A DNA stretch of 64,000 bases from an uncultured Alphaproteobacteria bacterium (GCA_902571865.1 CACGDO010000001.1:82315-146314); one strand, 5' to 3'. Positions 54,835 to 62,382 are shown, numbered from the stretch's first letter. Notes: generated by a model not told the origin, from the letters alone. A program made the numbers and translations.

Positions 54835-56829
54835 TTAGTTAACCCATTTTTCAACAATGATATTTTGTTCTTCAGCTGTTAAAAAAGGTAAATTGTTAAA
54901 AACTTCATTCCACTTACTTTCAATCTCTCTTAGAAAAGGAAATAAATCAGTTTCATTTGATAATTCAGTAGCTTCATCCTGCCAGTGTCCAAGAAAACCA
55001 GTGTTTTGATTTCCACAACCTCCAGTTCCATATTTTTTTAATTTTGAAATATTGCCAAAACCCTCTCCATGATTGAAACCAACTCTATTACCTATAAAAG
55101 TAAATTTAGGATAATATTGAGTACATAAAGTAACAGGAAACTTCATTTCATCTTTTTCAAAAAGTGCGTCAAAAATATAAAAATTATTATCAATATCTAT
55201 ATTAAAATTTTTACCTCCAATCATTTTCGCTTCTATTGAAGAAAAATATATTGAATTTTTCAGTAAATTATATTTTTTTAATTCTTGATCATTAATTTTT
55301 TTTATCTTTGTGAAATCAATACCTTCTATTTTTTTACCTTTCAAATTGTCATAAAAAAATACCCAACCTTTATCTTCTACAAAAGATGGATCAACCATTT
55401 CAAAAATTAAATTTCCCTTATTTATAAAAAACCAATTCGTATGTTTATTTAAATTTCCATTTACACAGATTGCATCCATTAAGTTATCATTATTCACATC
55501 TATTAAAGCCGTCCTATTACAATAAGAATTATACGGATGACTGTATTCATCTTTTATTTCTTTTGCCCATTCTTTTGGATCTGCCCAAGCAGGATTAGGT
55601 TCTACACCAGGAAATAATAAACTATTTTTAAGTTTAAATTTTCCGTTTCCTATATTTTCATAAATTGCAAACGCACTTGATGAGTAAAATGGCCCAACAA
55701 CTGAACTAATGAAATCTACATCTCCATCATTATCAAAATCCCAAGAAATCATATCAACAACTTGAGAAAACATAAATTTTCCCCCTAAGGTATAAACTGG
55801 TTCAATTTTAGTTTTTTGTCTTTTAAATTTGCCTTTACCGTTACCATAAAAAACTGAAACTCTATTCATACCTGGATCACCTTTCCAGCCAGAAGGAGAT
55901 ATTTCATTAAATTTTGGATTATAATGATCTCCAGAAATTATTAGATCTAAATTGCCATCATTATTATAATCAGCAGCAGTAACAGCAAATCCACCTTGAT
56001 TTGCACATATTTTTGCTTTGAAATTACCCCTACCATCATTAAAATGACAAACGGCTCCTTTAAATTCTGTAGTTATAATATCAATATCACCATCATTATC
56101 TATATCGCCTGATGTTGATCCATGAGAAAAACCAATATAAATTTTTTGTTTTTTTTCAGTTTTAAATCCAGTATGGTTACTTTGTTTCCAATTTGATTTA
56201 TCTGTTGAAATAAGAGAGTGATTTGGCCCAATATATTCATATTTTTTATTTCTTATTTGAACTTGTGCATTAGCAATAAAAATATCTTCAACATTATCGT
56301 TATTAAAATCAGCTATAATTAATCTTGCTAAGGTAGAACCATATCCAATATCTTGACTAAATTCATTATTCCAGTCAAATAAATTATCTTTAAATATTAT
56401 ATTTTTTTTTTTTGGATCTTGTAAAAATGTTAAGACAGGAGGACTAATAGCATTTAATATTTTTATATCCTGAACTGAACAGCCCCTTCTTCCTTCTTGC
56501 TCTAGATTTTCACCAGTTGTATTTCCACTACCGCATCTGTGACCTTCTCCTACAAAAATGATATCTTGAGTGTTGTTATTATCAAAATCTACCCAAGCAA
56601 AACCAGTGATAAAATAAAAATTATCTTTAAATTGATTTTTAATATTTTTAATAAATTTAATACCTGGAAGAAAATATCTTCCATCATTTACTTTATTTGA
56701 ATCATTAATGTACCAACCAGATAAACTAATTTTATTTATTTTTGCTTTTTCATAAATATCTTGATTATTTGCTAGTGTGTTTTTTACTATTAAAACAAAT
56801 AAAATTATTAATGAAATTAATTTAAACAT
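54835..56829 (-). CDS. Exported FG-GAP/VCBS repeat beta-propeller protein
   Basis: Signal peptide; six Ca-binding-type repeats (DFDNNNTQDI, DFNNDNVEDI, DIDNDGDIDI, DYNNDGNLDL, DFDNDGDVDF, DVNNDNLMDA). Confidence 0.85.
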   Translation of the reverse strand: MFKLISLIILFVLIVKNTLANNQDIYEKAKINKISLSGWYINDSNKVNDGRYFLPGIKFIKNIKNQFKDNFYFITGFAWVDFDNNNTQDIIFVGEGHRCGSGNTTGENLEQEGRRGCSVQDIKILNAISPPVLTFLQDPKKKNIIFKDNLFDWNNEFSQDIGYGSTLARLIIADFNNDNVEDIFIANAQVQIRNKKYEYIGPNHSLISTDKSNWKQSNHTGFKTEKKQKIYIGFSHGSTSGDIDNDGDIDIITTEFKGAVCHFNDGRGNFKAKICANQGGFAVTAADYNNDGNLDLIISGDHYNPKFNEISPSGWKGDPGMNRVSVFYGNGKGKFKRQKTKIEPVYTLGGKFMFSQVVDMISWDFDNDGDVDFISSVVGPFYSSSAFAIYENIGNGKFKLKNSLLFPGVEPNPAWADPKEWAKEIKDEYSHPYNSYCNRTALIDVNNDNLMDAICVNGNLNKHTNWFFINKGNLIFEMVDPSFVEDKGWVFFYDNLKGKKIEGIDFTKIKKINDQELKKYNLLKNSIYFSSIEAKMIGGKNFNIDIDNNFYIFDALFEKDEMKFPVTLCTQYYPKFTFIGNRVGFNHGEGFGNISKLKKYGTGGCGNQNTGFLGHWQDEATELSNETDLFPFLREIESKWNEVFNNLPFLTAEEQNIIVEKWVN

Positions 56830-56832
56830 AAA

Positions 56833-57522
56833 CTATTTATCATTTTGATGATTAACAACATCAACTAATATCGCAATGACTAAGTTTAAGATTGTAATAG
56901 AACAAATTGCAATAAAACTAAAAAAATATATCCAAGACCACCAATATATTGCTTGCATAGGTAGCATAACATTTTCCCAACTTGATAACGTTAAAACTTG
57001 AAATAGAGTAATTAAAGAGATGCCTAAATCAGCCCATCTTTCTGGATCATCTTCACCAAATAAAATTGAGCCCATAGTTGCATAAATATAGAGAATAATA
57101 AAAAGTAGGAGACTAACAAAAAATACTCTTTTTATAGAAGCAAGAATAGCTTCTATAATTTTTTTTAATTCAGGTATTACAGAAATTAATCTTAGTACTC
57201 TAAAAATACGAAGAAGACGTAAAACAAGGAAACTAGAATTATTTGGAATAGGTATAAGTGAAATTGCTACAATGATTGTATCAAATACATTCCAACCATC
57301 TTTTAAGAAATTTTTCTTTTCTTTTTCACCAATAAAACGAATAAGTATTTCAATTACAAAGAAAACAGTGATTGCATAATCAAGTAAATGAATAGTATTT
57401 AAAAATATAGGATCTAATTGATATGTTGTGGCACCAATAAGAATGGCATTTAATATAATTATAACAACAACAGAAAATTGAAAAATACGATTATCTTTCA
57501 ACTTAGAAAAAAAATCTATCAT
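56833..57522 (-). CDS. Bacterial voltage-gated cation channel (BacNav-like 6TM)
   Basis: S4 RLLRIFRVLR, WNVFD, pore FQVLTLSSWEN and S6 LNLVIAILVD. Confidence 0.9.
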   Translation of the reverse strand: MIDFFSKLKDNRIFQFSVVVIIILNAILIGATTYQLDPIFLNTIHLLDYAITVFFVIEILIRFIGEKEKKNFLKDGWNVFDTIIVAISLIPIPNNSSFLVLRLLRIFRVLRLISVIPELKKIIEAILASIKRVFFVSLLLFIILYIYATMGSILFGEDDPERWADLGISLITLFQVLTLSSWENVMLPMQAIYWWSWIYFFSFIAICSITILNLVIAILVDVVNHQNDK

Positions 57523-57528
57523 ATTAAA

Positions 57529-58551
57529 TTAAATAGTTTTTAAGTTATCTATTTTCCTATCCATCACAAAAAACCACAAAGGAGGGATTAAAGCCATAAT
57601 TAACATGATAGAGTAATTAGCAGGCATCTCTATTGCTTTTTCTTCTTGAGATAAAAGAGGATAGGGCTTTGATGCGCTCTGGTGATGTTCTGCATGAAGA
57701 CCTAAATTAAATGTCGACCAATTAGCAGAGATGTGACGACTATTCCAAGAATGGAAATCTGTAAATCTTTCATAACGTCCATTTTCTTTTTTTCTCTCTA
57801 AACCATAATGTTGAATATAATTTACTAACTCCAATAGAATAATCGAAACAAAAGAATGAAATATAACAAAAATTAAACCATTCATGCCAGCAACTAAATA
57901 AGCAATAACTAAAAATAAAAATTCTAATACAAAATAATGAGTCATTCTGTTTTGAAAACTAAGAGTATTTAGATTTTTTCTATCAAGAATATTTTTTTCA
58001 ATATTCCAAGATGAAATCACACTATTAATTACACAGCGTATAAAATAAAAATAAAAATTTTCACCTCTTCTAGCTGTAGCAGGATCTTCTTTCGTAGCTA
58101 CATTTAAATGATGGCCATAAATATGTTCTATACGAAAATGACCATAACAACATAAAACTAGTAAAAACACTCCAATGCCTCGCATAAATTTATTTTTTCG
58201 ATGAATAAGTTCATGCGCAGTTGTAATTCCAATAGAACCACCAGACATACCTACAGCTGCCCCTAAAGCAGCAGCGGTTAATAATGTAATACTAGAATCA
58301 GAAACAACGATTAAACCAAATATAATTAAAAATAAAATGCAGGGGAGCACTATTAAAATAGAAAAATTGTGAAACACACTTTCATTTAACTCAACATCAT
58401 CTTTACTTAAGTAAGGTAATACAAGGTCGATAATTGGAACTAATACGAAAACCCAAATAAAAGGTGAAATTGACCAAGAGGGATTAATGATTAATCCTAA
58501 AGAACTAGCAAAAATCAATATTAGCGGTGTTACAAGATAAAAAATCATCAA
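57529..58551 (-). CDS. alkB: AlkB-like membrane di-iron alkane monooxygenase
   Basis: His boxes AHELIH, EHIYGHH, NYIQHYG and LHAEHH; ATKEDPATARRGE. Confidence 0.82.
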   Translation of the reverse strand: MMIFYLVTPLILIFASSLGLIINPSWSISPFIWVFVLVPIIDLVLPYLSKDDVELNESVFHNFSILIVLPCILFLIIFGLIVVSDSSITLLTAAALGAAVGMSGGSIGITTAHELIHRKNKFMRGIGVFLLVLCCYGHFRIEHIYGHHLNVATKEDPATARRGENFYFYFIRCVINSVISSWNIEKNILDRKNLNTLSFQNRMTHYFVLEFLFLVIAYLVAGMNGLIFVIFHSFVSIILLELVNYIQHYGLERKKENGRYERFTDFHSWNSRHISANWSTFNLGLHAEHHQSASKPYPLLSQEEKAIEMPANYSIMLIMALIPPLWFFVMDRKIDNLKTI

Positions 58552-60774: not shown

Positions 60775-62382
60775 ATGTCAAAAATATATGATTTCATAAT
60801 AGCTGGTGGAGGAACGTCAGGAATTATTACAGCAACAAAATTAATTGATCATGGTGCTTCTGTTTTAATTTTAGAAGAAGGAATTAAATCAAATAATTTA
60901 CTTTTATCGATGCCAGCTGGTTGGATTAAAGGTTTAGAAAATAGTCCATTCTTAAAATTTTATGAGTCTATTCCGCAAAAACAATTAAATAACCGTCAGC
61001 ATTTTATAGCACAAGCCAAAACACTTGGAGGAGGTTCTAAAGTAAATGGCATGGTATATATGCGAGGCAAACCATCAGATTATGATAAATGGGAAGAGGA
61101 GAGTGAAGATAGTAATTGGAATTGGAACTCGTTACTCAAGCATTTTGTTAAACTTGAAAATAATCAACGTATTCAAAATGAATATCATGGAAATAAAGGT
61201 AGCTTAAAAGTTTCTGATCCTGGTTATATGGTAGAAGGATCAAACTTATATATCAAAACAATGCAAGCTATGGGTTTGCCTTATAATGATGATTTCAATG
61301 ATGGCGATCAATATGGAGTAGGAACTATGCAATACACCATTGGTAATGGCAAAAGGTGTGATGTGTATAGTGCTTTTTTACAATCAAAAACCAATAACAA
61401 GAATTTAGATATTAAAACGAGTTCAATTGTAACAAAAGTTATTCTTGATCAAAAAAAAGCAATTGGTGTTGAATGTATATCAAATGGTAAATCAACTAAA
61501 TATTTTGCGAATGATATTATTTTAACATCAGGAGCATATGTTACACCTAAAATTTTAATGCATTCCGGAATAGGGGAAGCAAAGCAATTACAACAATTTA
61601 GTATTCCAGTAATTGAAAATTTAAAAGGTGTAGGTAAAAATTTACAAGATCATCATGAAGTCCCCGTGATCTCCAGAGTAAAACCAGGTTATAGTTATTA
61701 TAAACAAGATGAGGGATGGCGAATGATAAAAAATGGAATTCAGTATTTATTATTTAATTCAGGTCCTGTACGGTCGCAAGGCGTTGATAGTTGTTCTTTT
61801 TTTAATCCAGAAAATTTAGAAGATAAAAAAGATCCTAAAATTAAACTGTATTGCGTGCCCATAATGTATACCGATAGGGATACAAAAGGCATAAAATCTG
61901 ATCACGGATTAACACTCACGTCTTGCTTAATGAATCCAAAATCAAGAGGAGAAGTTAGAATTCAATCTTCTAACCCATTAGATTTACCTCTTATTGATCC
62001 AAATTTCTTAAGTCATGAAGATGATATGAGTGTTATGTTAAATGCAGTTAAGCTTGCAAGAAAAGTTATTCAAACAAAACCTTTATCCGATATTGTGTTG
62101 GAAGAAACAGTTCCTGGTCGATCTGTTAATTCAGATGAAGATCTCATTAATTATTCAAAAAAAATGATCAAAACAAATTGGCATCCAGTTGGAACATGTA
62201 AAATGGGTAAAGATAATGATGATATGGCGGTGTTAAATACAAAATTGGAAGTTAAGGGAATAAAAAATTTAAGAGTTTTTGATGTGTCGATGATGCCAAC
62301 AATTGTCGGTGCTAATACTAATGCTCCAGCTATGGCAATAGCAGATAAGGCAACAGACTTATTATTGAGGTCAAACCAATAA
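60775..62382 (+). CDS. GMC family oxidoreductase (choline-dehydrogenase-like)
   Basis: AGGGTSG, LGGGSKVNGMVYMRG, GVGKNLQDH, WHPVGTCKMG and GANTNAP. Confidence 0.92.
   Translation: MSKIYDFIIAGGGTSGIITATKLIDHGASVLILEEGIKSNNLLLSMPAGWIKGLENSPFLKFYESIPQKQLNNRQHFIAQAKTLGGGSKVNGMVYMRGKPSDYDKWEEESEDSNWNWNSLLKHFVKLENNQRIQNEYHGNKGSLKVSDPGYMVEGSNLYIKTMQAMGLPYNDDFNDGDQYGVGTMQYTIGNGKRCDVYSAFLQSKTNNKNLDIKTSSIVTKVILDQKKAIGVECISNGKSTKYFANDIILTSGAYVTPKILMHSGIGEAKQLQQFSIPVIENLKGVGKNLQDHHEVPVISRVKPGYSYYKQDEGWRMIKNGIQYLLFNSGPVRSQGVDSCSFFNPENLEDKKDPKIKLYCVPIMYTDRDTKGIKSDHGLTLTSCLMNPKSRGEVRIQSSNPLDLPLIDPNFLSHEDDMSVMLNAVKLARKVIQTKPLSDIVLEETVPGRSVNSDEDLINYSKKMIKTNWHPVGTCKMGKDNDDMAVLNTKLEVKGIKNLRVFDVSMMPTIVGANTNAPAMAIADKATDLLLRSNQ

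Follow-up and report, generated by a model that had tools for sequence, protein, structure and literature searches.

A conserved AlkB-like protein with glutamine at the Fe2-ligand glutamate position in rubredoxin-free Alphaproteobacteria related to HIMB59

Main

We describe a gene whose product is very probably an active, rubredoxin-independent monooxygenase of the AlkB fold, carried by a very abundant, streamlined and oligotrophic alphaproteobacterial genus related to HIMB59/AEGEAN-169. The protein would fall into class III, the membrane diiron monooxygenases with nine histidines, and within it into an uncharacterised ‘Gln-type’ clade that does without rubredoxin.

[quoted passage not shown] The clade studied here shows the risk of such counting, as it carries a conserved AlkB-fold gene without the sole iron-site carboxylate of the family, the canonical donor or an alkane operon. 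If its enzymes oxidise pentadecane, both an oligotrophic consumer and an arrangement of donors new to the field would be identified, and the glutamate would prove dispensable for alkane C–H activation; if they do not, a sizeable share of marine ‘alkB’ annotations would be wrong. A literature search on alkB in HIMB59, AEGEAN-169 and SAR11 found no paper discussing this gene.

An AlkB-type fold with nine conserved histidines

The gene was found in a 64,000-nucleotide stretch of an uncultured alphaproteobacterial genome, the whole of which we call the window. Its features are as follows.

57529..58551, minus strand: coding sequence of the putative AlkB-like membrane diiron monooxygenase, 340 aa from TTG at 58551; probable start ATG at 58548, giving 339 aa
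58450..58452, minus strand: codon of Val34, at the chain-length gate position by alignment with FtAlkBG Ile54 and Pseudomonas oleovorans AlkB Trp55; invariant in the clade
58201..58215, minus strand: histidine box 1, HELIH (H113, H117), from translation of the sub-range and alignment
58108..58128, minus strand: histidine box 2, EHIYGHH (H143, H147, H148), from translation and alignment with AlkB in the Protein Data Bank (PDB)
57802..57822, minus strand: NYIQHYG box (H248), with the Gln247 codon at 57811-57813, from translation and alignments
57682..57705, minus strand: histidine box 4, LGLHAEHH (H286, H289, H290), with L283 matching FtAlkB L318, from translation and alignments

Translation bore out the 340-aa reading frame with all histidine boxes that a first-pass annotation of this DNA had described, and placed it on the minus strand, which that annotation had left unstated; all nine AlkB histidines were present. 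Codon 2 is ATG (58548), and close homologues begin MIFY... and are 337–343 aa long; a 339-aa product starting at this ATG rather than at the TTG is therefore probable.

In Pfam the protein matched FA_desaturase (PF00487, E 1.6e-32), while no NCBIfam model matched it. The sole matches in a sequence search of the PDB were two Fontimonas thermophila AlkB structures, 8F6T (E 1.1e-52) and 8SBB (E 4e-48), aligned over nearly the full length. An AlphaFold2 model made from a 134-sequence alignment (mean pLDDT 96.8, pTM 0.94) was matched by Foldseek to 8F6T at a TM-score of 0.88 (rmsd 2.5 Å) and to 8SBB at 0.87, but to stearoyl-CoA desaturases (SCD1) at 0.31–0.34 only. The nine diiron-ligating histidines (H113, 117, 143, 147, 148, 248, 286, 289 and 290) were invariant in the 134 sequences; in FtAlkB the nine histidines bind both irons (PMC10110569, PMC10113152). 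The gene is under selection and is not a chance reading frame, because it combines its Pfam match and an E-value of 1e-52 to AlkB in the PDB with a median dN/dS of 0.057.

Desaturases of the SCD1/DesA kind have HxxxxH, HxxHH and HxxHH boxes without NYxxHYG, so that our protein differs from them in both fold and boxes. The genome encodes five other PF00487 paralogues, which are 17–22% identical to the AlkB-like protein and lack the NYxxHYG box; used as the tree outgroup, they formed a very long branch. The AlkB-like protein sat far from them, within the AlkB/XylM radiation, and the grouping with desaturases that the first-pass annotation had named as counter-evidence to its AlkB assignment did not appear. 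Model and alignments together assign the protein to the AlkB family and not to the desaturases.

Glutamine in place of the Fe2-ligand glutamate

The glutamate that AlkB carries in its NYxEHYG box was not found in the query protein, which reads NYIQHYG, as first annotated, and has Gln247 at this position. In FtAlkBG the residue is Glu271, described as the tenth ligand: it binds Fe2, is 3.2 Å away from the methyl group of the substrate and probably protonates the leaving oxygen (PMC10113152); a second paper on the FtAlkB structure has E281 as a conserved glutamate near the four-histidine iron (PMC10110569). By alignment, Gln247 stands where E271 of FtAlkBG, or E281 in FtAlkB numbering, would be. 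Gln247 was invariant in the query clade (12/12) and NYIQHYG was read in 120/120 close homologues, whereas 106 of the 122 other sequences in the alignment had Glu. Across 150 family representatives, one for each 50%-identity cluster, about one in eight (~12%) had Gln here, and a few had Ala or Gly. XylM, with NYFQHYG, has Gln at the same position. Gln was scattered over several separate places on both of our trees, and has arisen at the Glu position independently, several times. Gln247 is the deviation that matters in this protein, yet it is not unique to the clade. As XylM is an active methyl hydroxylase and has Gln, the residue is compatible with oxygen activation in this family.

The last histidine box had also been flagged as divergent from the LQRHSDHH of AlkB. 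LGLHAEHH is indeed present at 57682-57705, but it is not peculiar, since boxes of the NLGxH type prevail in a large group of short (~340 aa) AlkB-like proteins: among the 150 representatives, an NLGxH..HH last box together with HELxHR and EHVxGHH was the norm for a large set of ~330–370 aa.

Just upstream of this box, T280 stands where FtAlkB has L315, a distal residue of the cavity in contact with the alkane. This position was Thr in the query clade and Leu in 112 of the 122 other sequences; T280, E288, N312, I307 and H232 are the clade-specific changes at otherwise conserved positions. The changes from E to Q247 and from L to T280 could signal another substrate. The leucines that position the methyl group in FtAlkB were retained (L274 as L240 and L318 as L283) and are nearly invariant in the family; in FtAlkB both leucines position the terminal methyl, and Trp mutants of L274 and L318 kill activity (PMC10110569). 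The gate residue (FtAlkBG Ile54, P. oleovorans AlkB Trp55) aligned with Val34, and every sequence of the clade has Val here. A gate Trp restricts chain length, and small gate residues allow C13–C16 and longer chains (PMC10113152), so by analogy Val34 may permit chains longer than C12.

Phylogenetic position and comparison with known systems

The query clade comprised four 50%-identity clusters, the other three at 84%, 53% and 44% identity to the query and the next sequences at 41% or less. Its members were HIMB59-related Alphaproteobacteria, SAR116 and a few others, and the database names of its clusters and of the surrounding short AlkB-like group were all automatic. FastTree placed the clade near the base of the tree, and IQ-TREE (LG+C20, 51 rows) nested it among Glu-type short AlkB-like proteins. 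Its position was apart from XylM, from the AlkBs of Pseudomonas, Marinobacter and Rhodococcus and from the Bacteroidota type, with moderate SH-aLRT support for the deep branches (84–89) and a value of 99 for the query clade itself. The trees point to a protein that is not a XylM and that has no orthologue among the characterised alkane hydroxylases.

Compared with AlkB (Pseudomonas putida GPo1 type; Fontimonas 8SBB and 8F6T), the query shares the six-transmembrane-helix fold (TM 0.87–0.88, ~30–33% identity), the nine-histidine diiron site with its four motifs in identical order, the methyl-positioning Leu, a small gate residue as in long-chain AlkBs and most of the basic docking surface. It differs in having Gln for the Fe2 Glu and Thr for the cavity Leu (FtAlkB L315), and in reading HELIHR, EHIYGHH and NLGLHAEHH where AlkB has HELGHK, EHNxGHH and LQRHSDHH. 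It is also ~60 residues shorter, lacks alkFGHJKL/alkST context and shows no sister relation to characterised AlkBs in the tree, and neither its genome nor those of its relatives encode rubredoxin or rubredoxin reductase.

With XylM (TOL-plasmid types, the pDK1 and pNL1 copies) the query shares the superfamily and fold class, the Gln position and working without rubredoxin. Identity is only 24%, however, and XylM and its pNL1 homologue form a separate long branch. The XylM boxes are AHVNTHH and NHINHH, without the EH-box Glu that the query keeps, and XylM has an adjacent XylA (an FNR-like reductase with a plant-type 2Fe-2S domain) and an aromatic catabolic operon.

The reductase–ferredoxin–AlkB fusion of Limnobacter and Polaromonas is an AlkB hydroxylase driven by ferredoxin and not by rubredoxin (PMC8918992). 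The fusion has three domains, keeps the Glu and lies beside genes for a GMC oxidoreductase and an acyl-CoA ligase, whereas the query is a stand-alone hydroxylase with its donor presumably encoded elsewhere. On Polaromonas pPNAP01 (locus L026:1046-5007), the 752-aa fusion is annotated ‘fatty acid desaturase’ and is followed by GMC oxidoreductase and long-chain acyl-CoA ligase genes, forming a compact alkane-to-acyl-CoA module.

The nearest kin are the short AlkB-like proteins (~330–370 aa) of marine and other metagenomes, automatically named ‘alkane 1-monooxygenase’, at 33–43% identity and 200–250 bits. They share the HELxHR/EHVxGHH/NLGxH style and the length of the query, whose clade nests among them; most keep the Glu, whereas Gln247, Thr280, Glu288 and Asn312 are invariant in the query clade.

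Carriers of the gene and selection on it

The source genome is 1.63 Mb in size and 92% complete, with a G+C content of ~28–30%. A homologue at 87% identity, named ‘Alkane 1-monooxygenase 1’, was found in ‘Alphaproteobacteria bacterium MarineAlpha5_Bin5’, and MarineAlpha5 has been described as HIMB59-related (PMC8879329). Among the best 80 loci in a species-level genome collection, ~70 came from single-cell or metagenome assemblies of ‘uncultured Alphaproteobacteria’ (66–98% identity); the more distant copies among these 80 (44–69%) were from SAR116/Puniceispirillaceae, ‘Rhodospirillaceae’, ‘Rhodobacterales’ and three gammaproteobacterial assemblies. Of 36 genomes from the same genus, most of them 55–89% complete, 26 carried the gene. 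It was found in none of the 24 genomes searched from a sister family within that order, which may be the HIMB59 lineage. The median dN/dS of the gene against 57 orthologues was 0.057, a mark of strong purifying selection, and it is a conserved, selected and near-core feature of the genus.

Electron supply

That the window holds no rubredoxin or reductase gene had been noted before, and the result extends to the genome, where no PF00301 match was found and the only AlkT-like flavoprotein lies on another contig. Rubredoxin (PF00301) was absent from all 61 genomes searched (the source genome and 60 relatives), while control genomes matched normally. Eight of ten distant carriers also lacked it, and the two with it were gammaproteobacterial. 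No rubredoxin, rubredoxin reductase or XylA-type reductase lay within 8 kb of the gene in the 80 loci, and neither of two XylA proteins used as tblastn queries hit the genome (E ≤ 1e-3) or any of the 80 loci (E ≤ 1e-5).

The genome-wide search for rubredoxin or ferredoxin, which the first-pass annotation had proposed, returned systems of the MocE-type Rieske and 2Fe-2S ferredoxin kinds as candidate donors. On contig C4, an HcaD-like ferredoxin–NAD+ reductase of 409 aa, 27% identical to Rhodococcus rubredoxin reductase (AlkT-like), adjoins not a rubredoxin but a Rieske ferredoxin of the MocE family (TIGR02377, with 136 bits just reaching the cut-off), the pair lying at C4:12025-13624. A second pair, at C6:104324-105645, consists of a 103-aa 2Fe-2S ferredoxin and an adjoining thioredoxin-reductase-like flavoprotein. 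MocE-family ferredoxin was encoded in 25 of the 36 same-genus and 2 of the 24 sister-family genomes, a distribution that parallels that of the AlkB-like gene, although related genomes are not independent samples and the MocE-family gene has other oxygenase genes beside it. The candidate donors lie among such genes and may be dedicated to them.

Six arginines form the rubredoxin-docking patch of FtAlkBG (PMC10113152), and at these positions the query has four Arg, one Lys and one Tyr, the last in place of the R of EHNRGHH. With five of the six basic positions kept, the predicted surface would suit an acidic ferredoxin. There is precedent for AlkBs driven by ferredoxin, both in a natural reductase–ferredoxin–AlkB fusion that has activity and in vitro, where a ferredoxin system can stand in for rubredoxin (PMC8918992, PMC4021335).

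Gene neighbourhood

Neighbourhoods were read from the 80 loci with our own reading-frame calls and Pfam scans. In the source genome, the gene is flanked upstream by a 60-nt spacer, then a divergent EamA gene, an MFS gene and a GMC oxidoreductase gene, and downstream by a channel gene:

56833..57522, minus strand: voltage-gated-type ion channel gene, starting 6 nt past the AlkB-like stop codon
58552..58611, no strand assigned: AT-rich divergent intergenic region of 60 nt, shared with the EamA gene, with no whole promoter-like match inside
60775..62382, plus strand: GMC oxidoreductase with 34% identity to an AlkJ-type alcohol dehydrogenase from a Pseudomonas alk operon

The AlkB-like and channel genes are probably co-transcribed in the source genome. 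We rejected a functional link between them, as insertions split the pair in several close relatives and the adjacency is absent in distant ones. We likewise rejected the GMC oxidoreductase as a specific AlkJ equivalent, since the genome has five GMC paralogues, this one included, and two of the others resemble AlkJ more closely. The linkage to the AlkB-like gene holds in close kin only, and the enzyme is a weak candidate for a downstream step. Because the upstream spacer is only 60 nt long, it leaves no room for a riboswitch.

The channel, EamA, MFS and GMC neighbours recurred, with insertions, in close kin and were gone from ~88% identity downward. Neighbours in distant carriers (SelO, a lipid kinase, DapF, a MiaB-like protein, FtsY, PrmA, AlaRS, MFS and a flavodoxin-like reductase) were mostly housekeeping genes, unrelated to the source locus. 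Inference of function from the neighbourhood was therefore abandoned, as neighbours were conserved in close kin only. Within 8 kb of the gene, the 80 loci showed no alk-type operon (rubredoxin, reductase, XylA, regulator or aldehyde dehydrogenase) except for one unrelated-looking cluster. This cluster is in a Puniceispirillaceae (SAR116) metagenome-assembled genome (L105:6276-13477), where a 46%-identical AlkB-like gene lies between an MttB-family methyltransferase and a run of Rieske alpha, SDR, BKACE and aldehyde dehydrogenase genes; these genes recall the breakdown of carnitine or quaternary amines, and the arrangement is a single case. A search of the genome for channels that admit hydrophobic substrates, of the FadL or OmpW/AlkL type, found none. 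The beta-oxidation set was minimal: acyl-CoA ligases, a pair of acyl-CoA dehydrogenases and one FadB-like protein.

A small hypervariable islet surrounds the stable AlkB-like gene: the part of the window at 54835-57522, between it and urease accessory genes, varied among near-identical genomes. Across these loci (L027-L091), a gene for an FG-GAP protein occurred in few genomes, the upstream MFS gene came and went, and some genomes had 1.2–4.8 kb inserted between the AlkB-like and channel genes. In four SAR116-type loci (L099-L102), the AlkB-like gene and a YegS/DAGK-type lipid kinase gene met tail-to-tail. Immediately upstream, in the same orientation, L099, L101 and L102 had a gene for a 486–487-aa protein (SelO in L099), and L100 an ABC ATPase gene.

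Proposed reaction and alternative explanations

We propose that the bilayer delivers a hydrophobic substrate into the TM1/TM2 tunnel, whose geometry we take from alignments, and that the terminal methyl of a long aliphatic chain would thereby reach the diiron site and be hydroxylated with O2. NAD(P)H would supply two electrons by way of a flavoprotein reductase and a small [2Fe-2S] ferredoxin whose genes lie elsewhere in the genome, and not by way of rubredoxin. Proton delivery and Fe2 charge would be handled as in XylM, with Gln247 replacing Glu, and the resulting alcohol would be passed by generic alcohol and aldehyde dehydrogenases to the small beta-oxidation set. We infer the substrate, the identity of the donor and the outcome of the reaction, and the proposal as a whole, a ferredoxin-fed AlkB-fold terminal hydroxylase of the Gln-type clade with a long aliphatic chain as its substrate, is held tentatively, at somewhat short of an even chance.

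Free C13–C17 n-alkanes, such as cyanobacterial pentadecane and heptadecane, are the leading single candidate for the substrate, though they fall clearly short of being probable. A role in biogenic alkane turnover is plausible because the small Val gate and the methyl-positioning Leu are kept. Against it, alkane catabolism finds no support in an alk operon, in conserved neighbours or in a FadL/AlkL-type channel. The public label ‘alkane 1-monooxygenase’ is plausible and unverified, because the Fe2 Glu and the rubredoxin partner, two defining features of the family, are both missing. We consider it unlikely that the enzyme is a major unrecognised open-ocean sink for cyanobacterial C15–C17 alkanes, fed by a Rieske (MocE-type) or adrenodoxin-type ferredoxin and acting through a carboxylate-free, all-nitrogen/amide diiron site; to our knowledge, this class of donor has not been described for stand-alone AlkBs.

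The same type of enzyme and electron supply may instead serve a substrate other than free alkane, namely a membrane-partitioned molecule with an alkyl or isoprenoid end. This could be a lipid of the cell itself, or an algal lipid, alkenone, phytol-type compound or ether, with a role in lipid remodelling or scavenging and not in growth on hydrocarbons. Esters, ethers and alkenes are known to be accepted within the AlkB family. Such a substrate would fit the clade-specific polar Thr280 at a cavity position that is Leu in 112/122 others, together with Gln247, and the absence of alkane operon, regulator and FadL/AlkL alike. It would also suit a near-core single gene in a streamlined genus, the housekeeping surroundings in distant carriers, the YegS-type lipid kinase that adjoins in SAR116-type loci, and the breadth of the AlkB family towards esters, ethers and alkenes (PMC13140642). 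No neighbour points to a specific substrate, however, the lipid-kinase adjacency is convergent and limited to one lineage, and in its methyl-positioning leucines and small gate residue the protein matches the AlkBs of long-chain alkanes exactly. We regard this explanation as a real possibility that stays well below even; put simply as a non-alkane lipid role against an alkane role, the two are about equally likely.

Sharing Gln with XylM, and with rubredoxin unused by both, the protein might be a XylM-like or ‘Gln-box’ enzyme whose target is a small or activated methyl group, either aromatic (xylene, p-cymene) or methyl-sulfur such as DMS. A Methylophaga ‘fatty acid desaturase’ gene, MDMS009_226, is induced on DMS, which its authors read as a lipid-homeostasis response (PMC6548844). 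We find such a function improbable for the query: in the trees its clade stands apart from XylM and from all remaining Gln clades, the Gln-type cassettes of SAR86 and methylotrophs included, with Gln having arisen independently; the EH-box Glu that XylM lacks is kept; the genome has no XylA-type reductase; and the gene has no cassette of ferredoxin and small membrane protein, no aromatic-degradation genes nearby and an upstream spacer too short for a riboswitch. The Pfam assignment to FA_desaturase and the missing Glu, the proposed Fe2 ligand and proton donor, would suit a desaturase, another non-hydroxylating diiron enzyme or a catalytically impaired relic that has lost the sole carboxylate of its diiron site. 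This is the least credible explanation and very improbable, for the fold is that of AlkB and not of SCD1, all nine histidines are intact, XylM works with Gln, and both the dN/dS of 0.057 and the invariant Gln argue for a selected function.

Desaturase-family paralogues elsewhere in the genome

The five paralogous FA_desaturase-family genes (327–338 aa, 42–54% mutual identity) lie outside the window, at C4:11033-16534, C5:103222-111460 and C3:28984-29967, all beside sugar-type ABC transporter genes. Two of them flank the HcaD-like reductase, the MocE-family Rieske ferredoxin and a PanB-like gene, and a gene of the FA_hydroxylase family follows. By likeness to the Sinorhizobium moc locus, the five-paralogue set may be an expanded mocDEF-type system (rhizopine/methyl-inositol oxygenase), which by this analogy perhaps serves to O-demethylate methylated sugars or inositols.
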